In this document: piece by piece, positions 3,088-14,788 of the stretch | Position numbering within the stretch: position 1 is the stretch's first letter | Layout: every line of letters starts with the position of its first letter | Origin: an uncultured Myxococcales bacterium | GTDB lineage: Bacteria > Myxococcota > UBA4151 | Length of the DNA stretch: 16,095 nt | Reading direction: 5' to 3' | Assembly: GCA_964013405.1 (NCBI GenBank) | Contig: CAXGWI010000079.1 | Coordinates: 1-16,095, forward strand | Made by a program: the position numbers and the translations under genes | Notes under the pieces: model-generated | Seen by the model: the letters and a program-made list of their open reading frames with translations, nothing else | Told to the model about the DNA's origin: nothing | Database searches by the model: none

Positions 3088-4317
3088 ATGATGCGTACAT
3101 CCCTCGTCCTGTCCTCCCTTTTCCTTCTCTGTGCTTGCCCGGGCGTGGTGCTCGATCAAGATGAAGGTGGTGGTGGCGGTTTGGCACCAAATATCCCCCC
3201 TCCCCAATGTGATCGAGACGGCTTTGATGTGGATTTCTCCACCGCCACCGCCGGTGTGGGCCGGCGTGGCGGGAAGCGCTACCTTCGTTATGATGTCCGA
3301 GGCGATGGCGAGGTCTTTGATAAGCTCGAGGTCATCGCCTATCTCCGGGATGACGAAGAAAGCCTGCCGGCCGGTGACGAACCGATCCGGCTCTTCGCCG
3401 AAGACGGCCTCGCAAACTGTGAGACCTGCGTCATTGCCTATCGGGGCTGTGATGGAGATACCTGTGCCGAAACTTATCTCGCTGATGGTGAACTCCTCGT
3501 CAGCTCGTCCGGGACCGAAGGTGACACCTTCAAGGCGAAACTCGTCTGGGATCGGGCGCAAACGATCTTCCGGGAGGTCGATGGCGACGGTGAGGTCCAC
3601 GAGCGGGGCTATGAGTTCTGCGGCTCTAACCTCACCTTTGAAGCGCCCATTGGCAACGACCGTAAGGGCAGTTGCAGCGACACCGGCGACGGCGCCAAGG
3701 TGGGTAATTTGCTCGCCGACTGGGCTTTGCCGAACTGCTACGGCGATATGGTCGGACTCCACGATGACTGTGGTCGAGTGAAGGCGAAGGTCCTCATGCT
3801 CACCACCGGTTGGTGCCCCGCCTGCGCGACTCGGGTCCCCCAAATGGAGACCGAGATGGCGCCGAAGGCTGCAGACGGTGCGCAAGTCTACTACCTTCTC
3901 GGTGAGATGGGTCGAGGCGAGCCGCCATCGCCAGCGGCGTGCATGGGCTACGCCCGGGGCAAGGGGATCGATCCTGCCCGCATGCTGATCGACAACGCGC
4001 AGATTCCCAATGGCAATTACGTGTCGTTCTACAACACGGTCTACGGTCGACCCTTCGACCAGCCAGACCTGGATCAAAATGACGGCAATGCGGTCAACTC
4101 AGCATTCAACCAGCAGCGGTACACGAAGCTGTCCACCTGCCCGTCCATGGACGACCGGGATGGCGATGGTGCACCGGACTACATGTGGGGTCTGCCCTAC
4201 ACGGCAGTCCTCGACGGCGAAAACAATCGTTACGTTTGGGGCAGCGGGGACTCAACGGTCTGCCCGAGCCCCTACGGCTCCCACAGCCAGGCTGTCACCG
4301 ACCTGTTGAACCGTTAA
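3088..4317 (+). CDS. Cys-rich lipoprotein with C-terminal thioredoxin-like (redoxin) domain
   Basis: AGGAG RBS; hydrophobic N-terminus ending LLCAC (lipobox-like); N-terminal Cys-rich domain with CETC; redoxin-like segment KVGNLLADWALPNCYGDMVGLHD...VLMLTTGWCPAC (CxxC at 3814-3825); DxDGDG acidic motifs. Confidence 0.7.
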   Translation: MMRTSLVLSSLFLLCACPGVVLDQDEGGGGGLAPNIPPPQCDRDGFDVDFSTATAGVGRRGGKRYLRYDVRGDGEVFDKLEVIAYLRDDEESLPAGDEPIRLFAEDGLANCETCVIAYRGCDGDTCAETYLADGELLVSSSGTEGDTFKAKLVWDRAQTIFREVDGDGEVHERGYEFCGSNLTFEAPIGNDRKGSCSDTGDGAKVGNLLADWALPNCYGDMVGLHDDCGRVKAKVLMLTTGWCPACATRVPQMETEMAPKAADGAQVYYLLGEMGRGEPPSPAACMGYARGKGIDPARMLIDNAQIPNGNYVSFYNTVYGRPFDQPDLDQNDGNAVNSAFNQQRYTKLSTCPSMDDRDGDGAPDYMWGLPYTAVLDGENNRYVWGSGDSTVCPSPYGSHSQAVTDLLNR

Positions 4318-4320
4318 ACC

Positions 4321-4647
4321 TTGCGCCCGCCGCTTTGGATCGGACCCCTATTGCTGGTCCTCGCCGCCCCCGCCGCCGCTCAGGATGTGAGCGGTGACGG
4401 TGGCTTAGACGGTGGCATCAGCGACACGGAGATTTGCGACAACTGCAGTCCAGCCGTCGTCGACTTCGAGGCCTGGGATGTGGGCCCGCAGGAGCGTCAG
4501 GATGCTGGTCTGCGGCAACGCCGGGCCCGCCCCGACGCCGGGATCCAAAATGCGCCTGAGTCCGGCGGCTTCGGTTGTAGCACCGGGGTCATGGGCCTGG
4601 AGCCCCTGTTCCTGCTCGGCCTGCTCCGACGTAGAAAGAAAAGGTAG
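4321..4647 (+). CDS. Small secreted protein with MYXO-CTERM-like sorting tail
   Basis: Signal peptide ending AAAQ, a low-complexity DGG/DAG-rich body with one CDNC motif, and the C-terminus GGFGCST-hydrophobic stretch-LLRRRKKR. It fills the gap between its neighbours (3 bp and 6 bp spacers). The TTG start is uncertain. Confidence 0.7.
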   Translation: MRPPLWIGPLLLVLAAPAAAQDVSGDGGLDGGISDTEICDNCSPAVVDFEAWDVGPQERQDAGLRQRRARPDAGIQNAPESGGFGCSTGVMGLEPLFLLGLLRRRKKR

Positions 4648-4653
4648 CGCACC

Positions 4654-5604
4654 ATGGTGGCTCTGCGCTCACTTCTCCTCCTTAGTCTCGCTTGCGTGCC
4701 CTCCGTCACGCCCACCCCCTACGAGCCCTATGCCCTCGACAATCAGGGCTTGATCGACTGTGCCGCGCCCCCGGCCTGTGACATCAACGCCGTGTTTTGT
4801 CCCTGCGCCGATGCGCCCAACTGGCAGTTGGAAGATTTCCAGAATGCAAGCCCACGCAAAGGTGAGACCTACGGAATTCAGGACCTATTGGGCGAAGGCA
4901 AGGTGGTCATCGTCAGCTTCTTCTTTGGTGGCTGCGATGCCTGCCATCAGCAAATGGCTGCCATGCAGATCATGCAGGATAAACTGCATGCCCAGGGTTA
5001 TACGGACGTCGTCTTTATCACCATCAACCAGAAGGAATACTCCAACGACACGGCCCAAGCTGAGTACTTCCGGCGCCGTAGTAGTATTGTTTGTAGCACC
5101 GGCGATTACCCCTCCTGTGACGAGAACGGAACGGTGCTCGTCACCTTCCCCCTCTTCCAGGACACCGTTGAGGGCGGCGGTTGGTCCTCCCATCAAGGGC
5201 AGAAGGACGACATCTTGATCTACCGGGCCGATGGGAAGCTCCACCGCTTCTACGGCTCCATGGAACGAGAGGATCCAGCCGAACGGCAGGATCCCAAGCT
5301 GGCCCTGGAAGCCAATCCCGACAACTTCCGCTTGTTGGAACGGGCCATTCAGTCGGCTTTCGGGGTCCAGGCCTGCACAGATGATAGCGACTGTGAAGCC
5401 ACTGGCGGATGGTGCCGGCTTCCCGATGGCAGCTGTGGCGGCGAAGGGGTCTGCGCCCCTAGCCCCCTCGAAGGCGAGGTCACACAATGCTGGGAAACCC
5501 TCATGCCCCAACCGGTCTGTGGCTGTAATGGCGAAACCTACCTTAACCGCTGTGCGTTAGAGGCGGCCGGGACCAGCCTTCTCTACGCAGGCACCTGTCA
5601 GTAA
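4654..5604 (+). CDS. Lipoprotein with selenoprotein-P-N-like thioredoxin-fold domain (CxxC) and C-terminal Kazal-type domain
   Basis: Lipobox LSLAC; VVIVSFFFGGCDAC; KLHAQGYTDVVFITIN; FPLFQD; WSSHQGQKDDILIYRADGKL; Kazal signature PVCGCNGETYLNRC...AG..LLYAGTC at the C-terminus. Confidence 0.75.
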   Translation: MVALRSLLLLSLACVPSVTPTPYEPYALDNQGLIDCAAPPACDINAVFCPCADAPNWQLEDFQNASPRKGETYGIQDLLGEGKVVIVSFFFGGCDACHQQMAAMQIMQDKLHAQGYTDVVFITINQKEYSNDTAQAEYFRRRSSIVCSTGDYPSCDENGTVLVTFPLFQDTVEGGGWSSHQGQKDDILIYRADGKLHRFYGSMEREDPAERQDPKLALEANPDNFRLLERAIQSAFGVQACTDDSDCEATGGWCRLPDGSCGGEGVCAPSPLEGEVTQCWETLMPQPVCGCNGETYLNRCALEAAGTSLLYAGTCQ

Positions 5605-5618
5605 AGGGAGAACGAGCC

Positions 5619-5981
5619 ATGCGATCGCTCCTTTTGACCTTGGCAGTCCTGAGTTTAGGCGGCTGCAAGGGCTATGACTCGAACAAGAACCTCGATCAGT
5701 TCACCGATGGAGAGATGTCGGCCCTGTGCCATTGGGCCTACCAGCTGCGGGGGGGCTCGAGTCGCCTGCAACAATGCGAGGACGCCGACGGCACCGCGGT
5801 CAGCGTTGTCCTCGATGTAGAGACTGCCGAGTTATCCCGCTGTGTAGGTATGCCGAGACCTGCCTGCCCAGCCATCTACTTTGAAGACTGTACCGAAGCC
5901 ATTGCTAACGATCCTTGCACTGGCGCCGCCAGCAAAGCGTGCTTGGACTGGAGCGACTACTGCGAACTGAAGGAAGATTGA
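5619..5981 (+). CDS. Small Cys-rich lipoprotein, function unknown
   Basis: GGGAG RBS, lipobox LGGC, eight further Cys in the mature region, and a TGATG overlap with the next gene. Confidence 0.75.
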   Translation: MRSLLLTLAVLSLGGCKGYDSNKNLDQFTDGEMSALCHWAYQLRGGSSRLQQCEDADGTAVSVVLDVETAELSRCVGMPRPACPAIYFEDCTEAIANDPCTGAASKACLDWSDYCELKED

Positions 5982-7501
5982 TGCGCCTTACCCTGACAGC
6001 CCTCGCCGCTCTGGCCCTTTTCTTCGCGCCCAACTGGGCCCAGGCTCAGTGTGCAACCTGTGGCAACCCGGCCGTCCAAGCGGGGGGACAGTCCTTCTCC
6101 GGTGAGCAGCCTGGGAGCGGCTTCGCGGCGGAGTTTATCTACGGCTACCTCAATCTCGATGATTTCGTGGACGGGGAAAACAACAACGCCCCTGTTTCGG
6201 CGGAGACCGTCAAAGACCTCATGGGTGTCGACAACTTCCGTATGACTGTCCACTCCACGACCCTGATCGGTCGTTACGGTATCAAGGGTGGACACACCTT
6301 TGGCTTGGTGGTTCCGGCTGGCTATCCCATCACGAACAAGGGTGGCAGTCCGAAGGGTCAGTTCGGCATCGGTGATTTGGATTTAAGCGCCACGCTCAAC
6401 TTGAAGGACCTCATCAGCGATAAACTGCCGGCCCTGAGTCTGAGACTTGGCACCGTCTTACCCACGGGCACCTTCAGCTTTGCGGGAACAGCCCAAGCCG
6501 TGGCCGCCGAGCAATACGTGAGTTTGGGCCGGGGCAGCTATTGGGGTTCGGCCGGGCTCAGCCTCTTTGGCAAGGTCACCGACGACCTCTCTTACTTGGC
6601 TTCGGTGAGTTATCAGCAGCCCTTCAACACCTACAAGACCGATGCTGGGGCTGGGCAGACCGCCACCTTCCGCTTTGGTCAGGAGATTCGGGCCAGCGGC
6701 GGGCTGATCTACCCACTCAAAAAGGGGGAGTGGAACCTCGTCCTTCAGGCCGACTTCTCCCAGCGTTCCGCCGCCATGCAGCAGCTCGCCGGTGAGACCG
6801 AAGCGACCCCCTTCGAAAAGACCGCTGGCAGCAATGCTAATCTCCTGCCTGCCATCAGTTGGACCAAGGACAAGCTGACCTCCACCGTCGCGATGACCTA
6901 CCCCATCTACTTCCAAGTGAAGTCGGTGGACATCATCCCCGACCCCAGCGTTTATCTCTCGTTCAGCTACCGCTTCGGCAGCTCGGCACCGACCGGACCC
7001 AAACCAGCCATCGAGCCGGGCGACGACCCCATCGACCCCAACGTGGTGGGCAAACTGCCGCCCGGCAAGATCACCATCGTGGACTACTGGGCCGAGTGGT
7101 GCCTCATCTGTAAAAAGATCACCCCCGGCATGAAGGCCTACACCAGCGCCTGGGACGATGTGCACTTCATCAAGGTGGACGCCACCAAGTGGGATGTGCC
7201 CGAGTTCGAGAAGTACCTGCCGGCCCAACCGAGCCTGCCGGTAATCGATATCTTCAATCGGGAGGGCAAACTGCATCAGCGCCTCTCCGGCGAGGCCTGC
7301 AGCGAGTTCGTCAACAACGGCTACAAGCTCCTCGATGGCCTGCCCGGCGGTGGCCCCAAAGTGAAAGCCGCCGCGAAGCCAGAGCCCGAGGAGGAGGTGC
7401 CAAGCACGGAGCAGGAGCCTGCGCCCGCTGCTGAGCCGGCCAAAGGCACCACAGGCGAAGTGGAGCCCGAGCCTATCCCGAGCATCGAGATCGCTAACTA
7501 A
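5981..7501 (+). CDS. Outer-membrane beta-barrel (COG4313/MetA-pathway 'transporter'-like) fused to a C-terminal thioredoxin domain
   Basis: Start moved to ATG 5981 (TGATG coupling). Signal peptide ending AQA, then QCATC. Barrel-family motifs GIGDLDLS, LRLGTVLPTG and SLGRGS, alternating amphipathic strands ending YLSFSYRF, a Pro-rich linker, Trx motif ITIVDYWAEWCLIC (CxxC 7100-7111) with FIKVD and LPVIDIF, and a P/E/A-rich tail. Confidence 0.7.
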   Translation: MRLTLTALAALALFFAPNWAQAQCATCGNPAVQAGGQSFSGEQPGSGFAAEFIYGYLNLDDFVDGENNNAPVSAETVKDLMGVDNFRMTVHSTTLIGRYGIKGGHTFGLVVPAGYPITNKGGSPKGQFGIGDLDLSATLNLKDLISDKLPALSLRLGTVLPTGTFSFAGTAQAVAAEQYVSLGRGSYWGSAGLSLFGKVTDDLSYLASVSYQQPFNTYKTDAGAGQTATFRFGQEIRASGGLIYPLKKGEWNLVLQADFSQRSAAMQQLAGETEATPFEKTAGSNANLLPAISWTKDKLTSTVAMTYPIYFQVKSVDIIPDPSVYLSFSYRFGSSAPTGPKPAIEPGDDPIDPNVVGKLPPGKITIVDYWAEWCLICKKITPGMKAYTSAWDDVHFIKVDATKWDVPEFEKYLPAQPSLPVIDIFNREGKLHQRLSGEACSEFVNNGYKLLDGLPGGGPKVKAAAKPEPEEEVPSTEQEPAPAAEPAKGTTGEVEPEPIPSIEIAN

Positions 7502-11108: not shown

Positions 11109-12575
11109 GTGATGATGACCGAGAACCCTTATGCCACCGCTTTAGACGGACTGATCCTCGCTGACCCCGTCGCCGCCTTCTTCGCCTTTTGTCGGGAGCG
11201 AGAAGCCGTGCGGATTCGTCGGGCATCCGGTGCACCGGCTCCCTGGTCCCAGGACGAAATCTTCCAAAGGGGTCGTTTCCTCAACGTGTTTCGGGAAGAT
11301 GACCGCGGCAGTCAGGCATTGCTGCGCTTTGCTAAGCCGGTGGCAAAAGACTTAGAGCGCTTAGTTCATGCCCTCTTCTTTGCTCGTTGGTGCAATCGCC
11401 AATCCACCCTGGACAGCCTCTCTGCTAATCTGCTGGAATCACCGGAGGCATTGATTCCAACTCTTGAGGCCTTGCCCGAGCCGCCATGGTGTAACTGGAC
11501 GGCCTACCCTGTGGAGCCGATCCGCTGGCAGGGGAAACTCTACAGTCGCTGGGACAGCGCCACCGACTTGTTTCGGCGCATCCGCCCGGAACTGACGGAC
11601 GTCATCTGCGCTGCCGGTGGCGATGTCATCAAGGCCACCGAGGCGGTCAACGGCTTGCTTCACATGGACAACGACTTTCCTATCTTTATGGCGGTTATGG
11701 ATCTGGCCTGGTTTCGCCCCGACATCATCGACCCTGCGAGTCCGGTACCCACCGGGATCGGCGCCGCTCCATTTCTGGACCGCCTCGAAAATGCCCTCGG
11801 CGCAAAGGATCACCAAGATACAGCGCAGCGGATGATCGAGCTGCAGCGGACTTTTTGGCCCGAAGCCAAACGCCCCTTTCAACCCATCGATATCGAATAC
11901 CTGGCCTGCGAATGCCGGAAGTATTACAGCTACGTGAACGGCACCAAAGCCTTCGAGGGTAAAAACCGATTTCAAGCGGGGCGCACGGCCCGGCTGAGTT
12001 TTGACCTGGACCTCCCGAGGCCTCAGGAACCTGAGATAACCACCCAGATCCACATCATTGCGGGGGGACCCTGTTCCGGTAAGACCACGCTTCTCAATGG
12101 GCTCGCTGAAGCCGGCTACCGGGTGGAGGTCGAAACTGCGGAACGGATGTTGAAGGAGGGCATTGCCGCTGGGCAGACAGCCCAGGAACTCCGGGCCGAC
12201 CCCCTGCAATGGCAGCAGGAGGTGATGCGCCAGGATTATGCCCTTTTTCATCGCTTACCGGTCGACGAGTTGGTCTTCGCTGACACCTCGTTCATCGAGA
12301 CCCTGGTCTTTGCCGAGCGAGCCGGGATGGAACTGGGCCCCAATCTGCGCCGTTGGCTGCGTCACAAGCGCTATCGGCGCGTCTTCTTTCTCGAGCCACT
12401 CCCGGCCTACGAAGAAAGCGCTGTCCGCATCGAATCCCAGGATCTTGCGAAGCAGATCAGTGCGCAGGTACGTGCCGCCTATGAGGCCTACGACTACGAA
12501 CTGATCCCCGTGCCAGCGGCACCCTTAGCCGAGCGCATCGCCTTCATCGAGTCGTGCCTGAAAGCGGACGGCTAG
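11109..12575 (+). CDS. Fusion of aGPT-Pplase1 / 5-hmdU DNA kinase helical domain (N-term) and AAA_28/NadR-type P-loop NTPase/kinase (C-term)
   Basis: The N-terminal FFAFCRERE..R..R..G..APWSQDEIF...RFLNVFREDDR.S and IDIEYLACECRKY match the aGPT-Pplase1 pattern as I recall it. The C-terminal IIAGGPCSGKTTLL..L...GY..E.E.A, VFADTS, Y..VFFLEP and Y.LI.VP....ERI.FI match AAA_28. GGAG lies upstream; the start could be 11109, 11112 or 11115. Confidence 0.75.
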   Translation: MMMTENPYATALDGLILADPVAAFFAFCREREAVRIRRASGAPAPWSQDEIFQRGRFLNVFREDDRGSQALLRFAKPVAKDLERLVHALFFARWCNRQSTLDSLSANLLESPEALIPTLEALPEPPWCNWTAYPVEPIRWQGKLYSRWDSATDLFRRIRPELTDVICAAGGDVIKATEAVNGLLHMDNDFPIFMAVMDLAWFRPDIIDPASPVPTGIGAAPFLDRLENALGAKDHQDTAQRMIELQRTFWPEAKRPFQPIDIEYLACECRKYYSYVNGTKAFEGKNRFQAGRTARLSFDLDLPRPQEPEITTQIHIIAGGPCSGKTTLLNGLAEAGYRVEVETAERMLKEGIAAGQTAQELRADPLQWQQEVMRQDYALFHRLPVDELVFADTSFIETLVFAERAGMELGPNLRRWLRHKRYRRVFFLEPLPAYEESAVRIESQDLAKQISAQVRAAYEAYDYELIPVPAAPLAERIAFIESCLKADG

Positions 12576-13213
12576 AAGGTGTAACCCATCCGGAAGTTCA
12601 TCACCGGCCAGATCAGACCAAGGATGGGACGGTCCTCGGCCAAACTCAGCCGGAGTCCGGCCTGAAACTCGGTGCAGACGCCCCCCGTCTTCGAAGAGGT
12701 CTTCCCGCCCATCAGTAGGCCGCCAACAACCCCGTAGAAGGGCTCGTCACGGCGGTTTGTCTTCATGCGCTCCAACTCGAGCTAGGCCGAGAGGTGGATG
12801 TTGCGGGTAAAACTGCCGATCAGATTGAGGCGCCCAAAGGCACCGATGTATTGGCGTTCGCCACCCAAATCCTCCACGCCGAGAATGTCGAACAACATAA
12901 ACCCGTCATCCTCCGGGTCGTTCCACGCATTCAAGCCGCCCAAAACCCCAAGGCTCAACGCGGCGTCGATCCGGCGCTCCACGGACACTTCCGCCCACGG
13001 ATGTGAGAACATTGCGCTAAACAGAAGGGTGCGGATCAAGCCGACAGTCACCGTGGTCTGGGGCCCCTCGGCTTTGACGGGCGCCGTCAGTTGGGCAGAA
13101 GGGCCATCATCGACACTGACGGGGGCCTCCGCAGGCCCAGCCGCCTGGGCCAACGCGCTGGGTCCAGCCAGCAGAACAAGGAGTAAGGGCATTGCCATCG
13201 AGCAGCGAGTCAT
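12572..13213 (-). pseudogene. Small outer-membrane beta-barrel protein gene interrupted by a single in-frame TAG (12782-12784)
   Basis: Track ORFs 12782..13369 and 12572..12775 are in the same frame and read through as ...NIHLSA*LELERMK.... ATG 13213 follows GGAG; signal peptide ending ALAQA; amphipathic strands; C-terminal beta-signal NFRMGYTF. Confidence 0.7.
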
Positions 13214-13256
13214 GGGGAGGCTCCAAGCCCTAGCTTCGAGGCTCCACCCAAATTTT

Positions 13257-14720
13257 TCAAGGGCGAGCAGGCCCCAGCCGCAGGGTGGCGGGCCCATCGT
13301 GCGCCCAACGCACAAAGAGCAGCCCAGCCACCTCGTCGTGGGTCCAGCGAGCGCCTTGGGCCTCGACACTCAGCCCCTCGGGAAAGAGTCGTGTGGGCAC
13401 GGCGATCTCCGTAATGCCCCCCGCCTTCGCCAGCAAATCCAGTTGGCCTTCCAGGGTGTCGGGATTCCAACGCCACCCGTTCAGGGCGCCAGCGACTGCA
13501 CTGGGATAGGCCCGCACCAGGGCCTCCACCTGCCCGAACTCGTGTCCACCAGGCCCGGTGATGCTCATCCCCTCTTCGTTCCAGTCGTCCTCGGTGGTGG
13601 AGTACTCCCAGAGTGTAGCGTGCATGCCACTTTCATCCATGGCCTCGTATTGGGCCCGCAAGTAGTCTGCAGCACCGGCGTTGTGTTGCTGAATCCCAAA
13701 TTCCCCGAGAAGTACCGGGAGATCCCAGGCTTCCCCCTTGCCAGCCCAGGCATGAATGCCGCTGACCGTATCCGAACTCCCCGGGACCCAGGTCTGGGTC
13801 ACGAAGACGCTGGGGGCGTAGTAATGGGGCGCAAAGAGCAACCCCTCCCGCTGGGGCCGAGTCATCGCAGTGCTGCCCTCCACCCCTTCGAGTCCTGTGG
13901 TGTCGAAGACGATGAGTGCGTCCGGTGCCACGGTGCGAATGGCGTCTGTCATGCGTTCATAAAAGGGGCTCAGCACTTCCGGGCCCCACTGGCTGGGGTC
14001 TGCGGTGCCGGGTCCAGGCTCGTTGATCACCTCGTAGCCGATGACACCCGGAATGCCCCAGGTCCGGGCAGCCATATGCTGCCACATGGCTTCGAAGGCC
14101 TCCATCAAACCGTCCTCGCCAGCCCAGAAACGATCAAAAGCGAGGCGAGAAGGGCCGCTGAAGTAACCCAAAAACCAATCATGACACTCCGAATGCTCCA
14201 CCGGTTCATAGGGATCGGGGGCCGCCCACAGTGGAAAGCCATCGCCGCAATAGGTGCGGGCAAAAACATCTTGGTGGAAGTCAACGATGGTTCGAATATT
14301 ACGCTCGCCTGCCGCCTCAAGAATACGAGCATAACGCTCTAGAAACACTGCATCATACTCACCCCTAACCGGTTCTAGAGCTTCCCAGGTAAAGGGGACA
14401 CGGAGCACATTCACCCCCCAGCTCTGGGCTTGGTCGAGATAGATCTCGAGGGCCTCTTCAAAAGGCGGCGCATCGGCCTGCAAGGGCGCATTCGATTCGG
14501 CGAAGGCAAAGGGATGAAAGGGCAAAAACTTACTGCGGCCGCCCGCGTTCACCCCGCGCAGCAGGACCTCCCGATCGAGGGCATCGAGGAGTGTCGGCCC
14601 CTGCTGTCGGAGTTGCTGGTGGGCTAACTCCGGTCCCTGGATGGGCGCCTGACAGCCCCAAAAGACGCCAGAGAAGAGTGCGGCATGAACCGCGAGGCTG
14701 GATGGTTTCGATAAGATCAT
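13257..14720 (-). CDS. Glycoside hydrolase family 5, endoglycoceramidase-like lipoprotein
   Basis: Motifs LLRGVN, RVPFTWEALEP.RGEYD, VDFHQD, GDGFPLWA, GYEVINEP (acid/base Glu), FAPHYY, LGEFG (nucleophile Glu) and ATLWEY, then LVRAYPSAVAG leading into a C-terminal beta-sandwich. Lipobox FWGC follows ATG 14720. Confidence 0.88.
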   Translation of the reverse strand: MILSKPSSLAVHAALFSGVFWGCQAPIQGPELAHQQLRQQGPTLLDALDREVLLRGVNAGGRSKFLPFHPFAFAESNAPLQADAPPFEEALEIYLDQAQSWGVNVLRVPFTWEALEPVRGEYDAVFLERYARILEAAGERNIRTIVDFHQDVFARTYCGDGFPLWAAPDPYEPVEHSECHDWFLGYFSGPSRLAFDRFWAGEDGLMEAFEAMWQHMAARTWGIPGVIGYEVINEPGPGTADPSQWGPEVLSPFYERMTDAIRTVAPDALIVFDTTGLEGVEGSTAMTRPQREGLLFAPHYYAPSVFVTQTWVPGSSDTVSGIHAWAGKGEAWDLPVLLGEFGIQQHNAGAADYLRAQYEAMDESGMHATLWEYSTTEDDWNEEGMSITGPGGHEFGQVEALVRAYPSAVAGALNGWRWNPDTLEGQLDLLAKAGGITEIAVPTRLFPEGLSVEAQGARWTHDEVAGLLFVRWAHDGPATLRLGPARP

Positions 14721-14788
14721 GGCGGAACTAAGGGCGTGAGCGCACAGCAACGCAAGCGGAATCGCCCATTTTTTAGCCTCGAGACCTC

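Follow-up and report, generated by a model that had tools for sequence, protein, structure and literature searches.

The Locus and Its Gene

The DNA analyzed here is a 16,095-nucleotide stretch from an uncultured Myxococcales bacterium (contig CAXGWI010000079.1 of assembly GCA_964013405.1), hereafter the window, and its subject is a gene that encodes a helical domain of family PF18723 fused to a P-loop kinase domain of the AAA_28 (NadR-like) type (Table 1). The open reading frame (ORF) encodes 488 amino acids from a GTG codon, and the recorded protein, which starts at the ATG at position 11112, has 487. The gene is divergent from an ABC operon encoding a solute-binding protein, a permease, and an ATPase and convergent on a minus-strand gene interrupted by one in-frame stop; a Pfam scan of the 16 ORFs in the window revealed no phage or DNA-modification genes. 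The initial annotation, which had described a cellular orphan in this very setting, is borne out on these points, as are the motifs that it had picked out, all of which were located in the ORF: ERE at residue 30, NVFREDDR at 59, EYLACECRK at 263, and GGPCSGKT at 319.

Table 1. Features of the fused gene and of other genes in the window
Feature	Positions	Strand	Remarks
Whole gene, PF18723 helical domain plus AAA_28/NadR-like kinase domain	11109..12575	+	487-488 aa
PF18723 (clade 1 aGPT-Pplase / HMUDK_hel) helical domain	11172..11978	+	approximately residues 22-290; Pfam, tblastn, model, VIA
N-terminal ER...W...NVFREDDR motif	11196..11306	+	conserved in family alignment (52 sequences)
E263-x3-C267-E268-x-x-K271 motif	11895..11921	+	Glu/Cys spacing as in PUGT Glu243/Cys247
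AAA_28 / NadR-type P-loop kinase domain	12054..12536	+	residues 316-476; accessory, missing in stand-alone relatives
Walker A GGPCSGKTT	12063..12089	+	residue 319 onward
Secreted thioredoxin-fold proteins	3088..7501	+	a run of genes
Convergent gene	12572..13369	-	one in-frame stop at 12782-12784
GH5 endoglycoceramidase-like protein	13257..14750	-	C-terminal GH5_C domain

Both domain assignments made in the initial annotation stand. The Pfam scan matched PF18723 (HMUDK_hel) in two stretches at 74.6 bits, against a cut-off of 25, and PF13521 (AAA_28) at 105.8 bits, above its cut-off; since phage members of PF18723 score 114-273 bits, the present protein is divergent within that family. In an alignment of 52 sequences, near and distant, seven residues of the helical domain (R31, W46, R62, G218, C267, E268, and K271) never vary and E263 is kept in at least 90%, while the Walker A motif is intact in at least 90% of 123 sequences. 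The ER...W...NVFREDDR motif is predicted to contact a phosphate or nucleotide.

The fusion of the two domains is real and conserved. The best 120 of 1408 protein matches all carry both domains, at 55-81% identity, and the AlphaFold2 model of the whole protein is confident (pLDDT 94.4, pTM 0.90), which together argue against an assembly chimera; a model of the helical domain by itself reached a pLDDT of 93.8. The gene is covered only piecemeal by contigs from three DNA runs, and a promoter and terminator scan around it returned signals at chance level only. Within PF18723 the gene represents a branch specific to cells, in which a NadR-like kinase is optional. It belongs to PF18723 and AAA_28 and, by sequence family, to neither the 5-hydroxymethyluracil (hmU) DNA kinases (5-HMUDK) nor the amino acid:DNA transferases (AADT).

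Relationship to Phage hmU Enzymes and Fold Class

The closest known systems are those of the phage proteins PaMx11 gp50, M6 gp55, ViI gp160, PhiW-14 gp72, and the C-terminal half of SP10 gp186, which fall in the same Pfam family and share the ER/W/R-D and E-x3-C-E-x-x-K motifs with the present protein. By tblastn, the match to PaMx11 is to gp50, at 26% identity over residues 29-272 (~245 residues), and not to the kinase gp49; no near-full-length match among the 80 best viral loci is more than 29% identical to the query. In contrast to the phage systems, the present gene carries a C-terminal AAA_28 fusion and is not accompanied by a hydroxymethylase, AADT, or HMUDK. Lee 2018 (PMC5889632) mentions family members in bacteria, and its Figs S12-S13 cover bacterial and fungal homologues; in Table 3 of that paper the M6 labels gp51 and gp55 are swapped. 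PF18723 directly follows the M6 kinase, consistent with gp55.

The initial annotation had likened the fusion to a phage hmU DNA kinase whose helical domain aids phosphorylation of hmU in DNA, a comparison that fares poorly on both sides of the fusion. The 5-HMUDK family (PF18748; M6 gp54, PaMx11 gp49) has a P-loop fold and occurs together with a PF18723 domain, but its likeness to the present P-loop is confined to Walker A (26 columns), and a profile built from 23 phage kinases, which finds those of ViI, PhiW-14, M6, and 15599, matches nothing in the host genome. As for the helical domain, phosphorylation of hmU-DNA is reported for purified M6 gp54 alone and likewise for the SP10 gp186 kinase half alone (PMC8989533). 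The label "hmU DNA kinase" is misleading because the phage kinase family is separate and is not matched by the present P-loop. The AAA_28/NadR-like nature of this P-loop, which had also been proposed, is upheld by the Pfam match to AAA_28 (NadR/Ttd14) and by the top Foldseek row, the NadR ribosylnicotinamide-kinase structure 8x7f (E 1.5e-3, root-mean-square deviation [rmsd] 3.1, 184 columns). NadR itself differs: the present protein scores 27 bits against a cut-off of 341 and has no adenylyltransferase or helix-turn-helix domain.

The helical domain probably has the helix-hairpin-helix (HhH) glycosylase-like fold that had been suggested for it, with matches to QNG1, OGG, and PUGT, the best at a VIA Z of 8.8, which is near background for helical domains, as are all values of 8-9. 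The 15 VIA rows with Z of at least 5 comprise 14 QNG1 or DNA glycosylase structures and PUGT: QNG1/DUF2419 leads (7u07, Z 8.8, rmsd 5.9, 205 aligned), followed by OGG (3n0u, Z 8.1), PUGT (Z 8.0, rmsd 4.5, 213 aligned), and AlkA/Mag1 (Z ~7), with sequence identities of 7-14% in the QNG1 and HhH matches. A sequence search of PDB chains returned no match at E up to 1. This fold class, with OGG and AlkA/Mag1 among the matches, lends itself to a DNA repair glycosylase that would excise hmU or some other base, damaged or modified, as does a distant relative fused to a family A DNA polymerase. Such an activity would, however, destroy the DNA of hmU-replicating phages that carry the family beside a hydroxymethylase gene, and the invariant cysteine points to ring-activation chemistry; we consider a glycosylase very unlikely.

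The top Foldseek row for the helical domain is PUGT (8z2n), at a weak score (prob 0.91, TM 0.41, E 0.3). PUGT is the PaMx11 AADT (gp46; 8z2m/8z2n), a clade 2 aGPT-Pplase (PF18724) like M6 gp51. In PUGT, Glu243 binds metal and Cys247 attacks C6, and these residues are reported to be essential in clade 2 (PMC11472151). Judged by motif spacing, E263 and C267 of the present protein correspond to E243 and C247, and by this analogy E263 is predicted to be a metal ligand and C267 the C6-attacking cysteine. The two proteins nonetheless differ in several respects: the present protein has no PF18724 match and is 12-16% identical to AADTs, PUGT has a Lys after the Cys where a Glu stands here, and no upstream hmU kinase is found in the host.

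Distribution and Neighborhoods of the Cellular Clade

A distribution scan with one genome per species yielded 41 loci, of which 10 are fused (one, at a contig end, incomplete) and 31 encode the helical domain alone, as proteins of ~290 aa that are 58-69% identical and come mostly from Marinimicrobia. The hosts of the clade include Myxococcota, Planctomycetota, Marinimicrobia, and one green alga, and most of the named hosts belong to marine groups. Within the host phylum 14 of 301 genomes match, and a close form is confined to the host genome and three of the five genomes of its family. The gene is retained in genomes of 0.7-1.1 Mb. In a quick tree of 59 rows, in which long branches meet, the fused and stand-alone forms constitute one clade (SH-aLRT 99) apart from the phage proteins, and none of the 80 best viral loci falls inside it; nine stand-alone rows of the Marinimicrobia group are nested within the fused forms, which suggests loss of the kinase.

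This AAA_28 kinase subfamily occurs almost always with the helical domain or its linker. No match to this kinase was found elsewhere in any of the 31 stand-alone genomes, which are incomplete and were searched without a positive control, and a search of the same genomes with the AAA_28 family gave one weak match over the cut-off (E 8e-6, genome G311). The idea of a split gene, with the kinase encoded elsewhere in the stand-alone genomes, was rejected, as none was found. A weak Rosetta-stone search for longer fusions recovered two further proteins of the same architecture only, and the ESM Atlas yielded PF18723-type clusters only.

These distributions bear on the possibility that the protein is a 5-hmU DNA kinase of the cell, gripping DNA with its helical domain and phosphorylating the base with its P-loop. 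The Pfam name, the largely intact Walker A motif, the confident packing of the domains (pTM 0.90), and the near-exclusive pairing of the subfamily with the helical domain or its linker all favor such an enzyme. It is nevertheless very unlikely, given that the P-loop lies outside the 5-HMUDK family, that known kinases need no helical domain, and that the helical domain persists without the kinase in stand-alone Marinimicrobia nested among the fused forms.

Several individual records deserve mention. The fusion in the green alga Cymbomonas tetramitiformis has split gene models and is fused in a second record, and two further hits look eukaryotic by their low-complexity inserts; contamination is possible for all of these. 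One stand-alone gene, in a 0.97 Mb chromosome record, is in two pieces (L041:6001-6929) and may be a pseudogene or a sequencing error. In a 1087-aa distant relative (P0268), PF18723 is joined to a family A DNA polymerase. Another branch of PF18723 in bacteria, distinct from the present clade (L054-L062) and scoring 367-382 bits in the four members scored, has an N-terminal extension in three cases, with a thymidylate-kinase match in two, and adjoins genes for MazG_C, dCTP deaminase, metallophosphoesterase, or ThsB-like TIR proteins. It looks like a nucleotide-centered defense island, and PADLOC has no model for its PF18723 part.

A survey of the neighborhoods found housekeeping genes among the neighbors scanned and no defense-island context. 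No neighbor is shared among the fused loci of the first set, and the commonest true neighbor in the larger set occurs at 6 of 45 loci; the stand-alone loci lie among housekeeping genes such as lptF/G, and in 16 of 42 loci the synteny beside lptF/G is fixed. PADLOC (library of 2023) returned only a marginal match, at the Walker A region (E 0.007). Neither context nor PADLOC speaks for the defense role that the initial annotation had entertained. A defense protein of this type would strip, trap, or phosphorylate the hmU of phage DNA so that this DNA is cut or fails to replicate. Such a role would suit the patchy, cross-phylum spread, the reported use of glycosylase folds against modified phage DNA (bioRxiv 10.1101/2025.10.29.685425), and the presence of another PF18723 branch in island-like settings alongside MazG_C, dCTP deaminase, and TIR genes. 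That branch, however, is a separate clade, and against the housekeeping neighbors, the lptF/G synteny, and a PADLOC match limited to Walker A we regard defense as a most improbable function.

PF18723 Tracks hmU Synthesis in Phages

The viral set was not drawn at random: it comprised the 80 of 322 loci most similar to the query, with at most 6 kb taken on each side. A synthase-like gene stands beside PF18723 in 64 of these loci, and 58 of the 64 synthase-like proteins carry the dUMP-type Asn at the position where Asn or Asp, by a general rule, marks the specificity of such synthases. The set further contains a TAGT glycosyltransferase at 33 loci, a kinase at 24, both at two, an AADT at 13, and none of these genes at 14. 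A Fisher test of TAGT against kinase (p 6e-5) is overstated, since the loci are related; clustering at 60% identity reduces 79 helical proteins to 56 clusters, 19 of them TAGT-only, 19 kinase-only, and one with both. A whole-record profile search found no kinase in any of 23 TAGT-type viral records (of 31 such records), 11 of which are at least 90% complete; the same profile matched all seven kinase-positive records used as a control. PF18723 thus accompanies hmU synthesis whichever decoration route is used, with no need for the kinase. This association of PF18723 in phages with hmU synthesis rather than with the kinase is a new finding, and the link to hmU drawn in the initial annotation is likely.

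The family is present in five of five phages that package thymine (T), namely SP10, PhiW-14, ViI, M6, and SH-Ab 15599, and absent from three of three that keep hmU, namely SPO1, SP8, and CP-51, in all of which a synthase-like gene is found. CP-51 DNA presumably contains hmU. SPO1 and SP8 are described as hmU phages, and SP10, PhiW-14, M6, and ViI as replicating with hmU yet packaging none, their hmU being turned into a hypermodified base or T (PMC8989533); SH-Ab 15599 is reported to have a dTTPase and a packaged dT/dA of 0.77 (PMC13458397). The simplest job for the family to share under both decoration routes would be the handling of undecorated hmU, the known outcome of which is T.

Three further observations concern the viral records. 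A large group of uncultured phages (L091, L094, L097, L098, L111, and others) combines a dUMP-type hydroxymethylase, TAGT, and PF18723 with no kinase, and by gene content these phages would make glycosylated hmU (base J-like) DNA. The Microbacterium phage BouleyBill (L045:4367-5179, 1357-2830) encodes PF18723 together with a Ploopntkinase3 gene and a synthase-like gene and no AADT; its synthase-like protein has Asp at the specificity position, as in dCMP hydroxymethylases, and the family may also act on hydroxymethylcytosine. In SP10, the N-terminal part of gp185 (L176:3652-6342) aligns faintly (E 0.33) with the catalytic PC...RS stretch of the SP10 synthase, making gp185 a possible second cysteine enzyme of its pathway, possibly its transferase.

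An alternative is an AADT-like group transferase. Following attack by the Cys, an amine or thiol would capture the methylene and thereby add a new group to hmU, or to another pyrimidine substituted at position 5, in the DNA or RNA of the host; the leaving group would come from the kinase. The protein has its motif and fold in common with PUGT; SP10, which makes glutamylthymine, has PF18723 fused to its kinase and no PF18724 match; and the kinase-plus-helical layout recurs in SP10 gp186 and in the thymidylate-kinase fusions of bacterial islands. On the other side, a search of the hosts for synthase-type enzymes (PF00303) found no hmU source, Tet/JBP oxygenases (PF12851) being an alternative one, the 31 stand-alone genomes gave no kinase partner, M6 gp55 is reported as dispensable for glycinylation (PMC8989533), and SP10 gp185, with its faint synthase-like motif, could itself be the SP10 transferase. 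In addition, the Cys is followed by Glu in the present protein but by Lys in PUGT, and the presumably equivalent Lys248 of YuA binds the glycine carboxylate. We judge a transferase to be quite unlikely.

A Proposed Conversion of hmU to Thymine

From the domains, motif conservation, fold class, and gene distributions described above, we infer a substrate, a chemistry, a hydride donor, and a role. Our favored interpretation, tentative and held at less than even chances, is that the helical domain and kinase protein works alone and erases the hydroxymethyl group of hmU, most likely to leave thymine in DNA. The HhH-like domain would flip the hmU base into a pocket, where a metal on Glu263 would bind O4 and Cys267 would add to C6, as in the clade 2 transferase. 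Departure of the 5-hydroxyl would then give an exocyclic methylene, and a hydride from a putative donor would yield thymine; less likely, loss of formaldehyde would yield uracil, which normal repair would then remove. The kinase would play an optional part, speeding the reaction by phosphorylation of the hydroxyl or of a 5′-OH. In phages, conversion of undecorated hmU to T by the family would precede packaging; its cellular role would be to clear oxidized thymine or hmU taken in from phage or dinoflagellate DNA. Equally tentative is the chemical core of this proposal, an AADT-like course up to the methylene intermediate after which the canonical base would be restored. The broader claim, that PF18723 enzymes at large are hmU-to-T reductases, making T on replicated DNA in phages and performing direct-reversal repair without base excision in the marine clade, is rather doubtful.

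Several lines of evidence favor the conversion to thymine, among them the phage pattern described above, the PUGT matches of the helical domain, the reported dispensability of M6 gp55 for glycinylation, and the retention of the gene in genomes of 0.7-1.1 Mb. The Glu-x3-Cys motif is kept, and the cellular clade occurs without partners, with no match to this kinase in the 31 stand-alone genomes, a canonical ThyA or none in 46 genomes, and no neighbor shared beyond 6 of 45 fused loci. Moreover, a clade 2 enzyme given borohydride and no glycine is reported to carry the methylene intermediate to thymidine (PMC8989533), so that, given a hydride, T is within reach of this chemistry. No enzyme for the hmU-to-T step and no paper on the cellular clade was found in the literature searched, although the reductase idea may already have been put forward in older phage work.

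A considerable body of observations weighs against this conversion. No hydride donor or cofactor-binding domain was found, including by the weak search for long-form fusions, and a literature search turned up no activity for any PF18723 protein. The structural scores are weak (Foldseek E 0.3; Z 8-9), the profile comparison with PUGT is not significant, and QNG1 and OGG tie with PUGT. With only ~26% identity to the phage proteins, the cellular clade may have come to act on another substrate; the glycine that phage members have in the HhH hairpin is substituted; and the domains of the fused forms are net acidic (mean -6.9), which disfavors binding of duplex DNA. The spread is patchy, with 34 of 251 genomes in the Marinimicrobia sample and none found in the same-genus genome. 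Among the phages, the five that package T also have the kinase and the three that keep hmU lack it, so that the contrast alone cannot separate the two genes, and SPO1, SP8, and CP-51 are close kin; and in SP10, where PF18724 is unmatched, the PF18723 domain may serve as the glutamate transferase.

The repair background adds a further difficulty. SMUG1 excises hmU, and a SMUG1 motif is present in 6 of 12 fusion hosts, as well as in the same-genus genome without the gene. None of 14 stand-alone hosts has this motif; Ung1 is the sole match to the uracil-DNA glycosylase (UDG) family in six of the 14, and a family 5 UDG occurs in six. With SMUG1 in fusion hosts and family 5 UDG in stand-alone hosts, the gene is not simply making up for missing repair; complementarity with SMUG1 is mixed, in a survey where 12 of 50 loci are not classable by motif. 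The only UDG-family match of the host genome (contig C6:37893-38327) likewise has a catalytic motif that is not classable.

The initial annotation had also pointed to a dispersed host pathway of hmU modification and to a thymidylate-synthase-like hydroxymethylase elsewhere in the genome, neither of which came to light: the host genome, 94% complete, has no match to PF00303, PF18748, or PF18724. The PF18724 search had no control there, although the same family did match in PhiW-14, and tblastn of two phage AADTs against the host returned nothing under E 0.03. ThyX is present. Across 46 genomes with the gene, a single canonical ThyA is found in 16 and none in the others, and the gene is complementary to neither thymidine kinase nor ThyA.

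Thymidine metabolism is pertinent to another explanation, nucleotide-level salvage, in which the NadR-like domain would phosphorylate the 5′-OH of the free nucleoside hmdU and the helical domain would convert or hydrolyze hmdUMP (to dTMP, dUMP, or the free base), so that hmU from dissolved DNA is recycled or detoxified. In its favor, the kinase is similar to NadR, shikimate, and deoxynucleoside kinases, all small-molecule enzymes; QNG1/DUF2419, which acts in nucleotide salvage and has the HhH fold, heads the VIA rows; the surface is acidic; most of the named hosts belong to marine groups; and dinoflagellate DNA is reported to have 12-68% of its T replaced by hmU (PMC11572971). However, the 16 gene-bearing genomes of at most 1.0 Mb have no thymidine kinase match (two have a deoxynucleoside kinase-like protein by eye), no transporter or nucleoside-salvage gene recurs as a neighbor, and phages must spare hmdUMP for replication, so the family would have had to switch substrate. 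Salvage at the nucleotide level is, in our estimate, unlikely.

Other Genes in the Window

The gene on which the fusion converges has no Pfam match and ends in a C-terminal Phe, as in outer-membrane proteins. One contig from a separate DNA run (depth 3.7) has a sense codon in place of the in-frame stop, and the apparent split may reflect strain variation or a faulty assembly. Beyond it lies the gene for the endoglycoceramidase-like protein of glycoside hydrolase family 5 (GH5). Elsewhere in the window, the run of secreted thioredoxin-fold proteins contains one with SelP_N and Kazal matches and a barrel-like protein with a C-terminal thioredoxin domain.

Implications

Even if the proposed conversion of hmU to thymine fails, a misleading annotation is corrected: by family, the protein is not a 5-hmU DNA kinase. 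The question is testable with proteins already cloned, namely, M6 gp55 and ViI gp160, and, should the conversion prove true, such an enzyme could help to map hmU or to read modified DNA. PhiW-14, SP10, ViI, and M6 are reported to replicate with hmU and package T (PMC8989533), and the pattern described here singles out one gene family. Should the cellular clade carry out the same conversion, this would represent a new type of DNA repair, in which an oxidized base is reduced in place, operating in some of the smallest bacterial genomes of the ocean.

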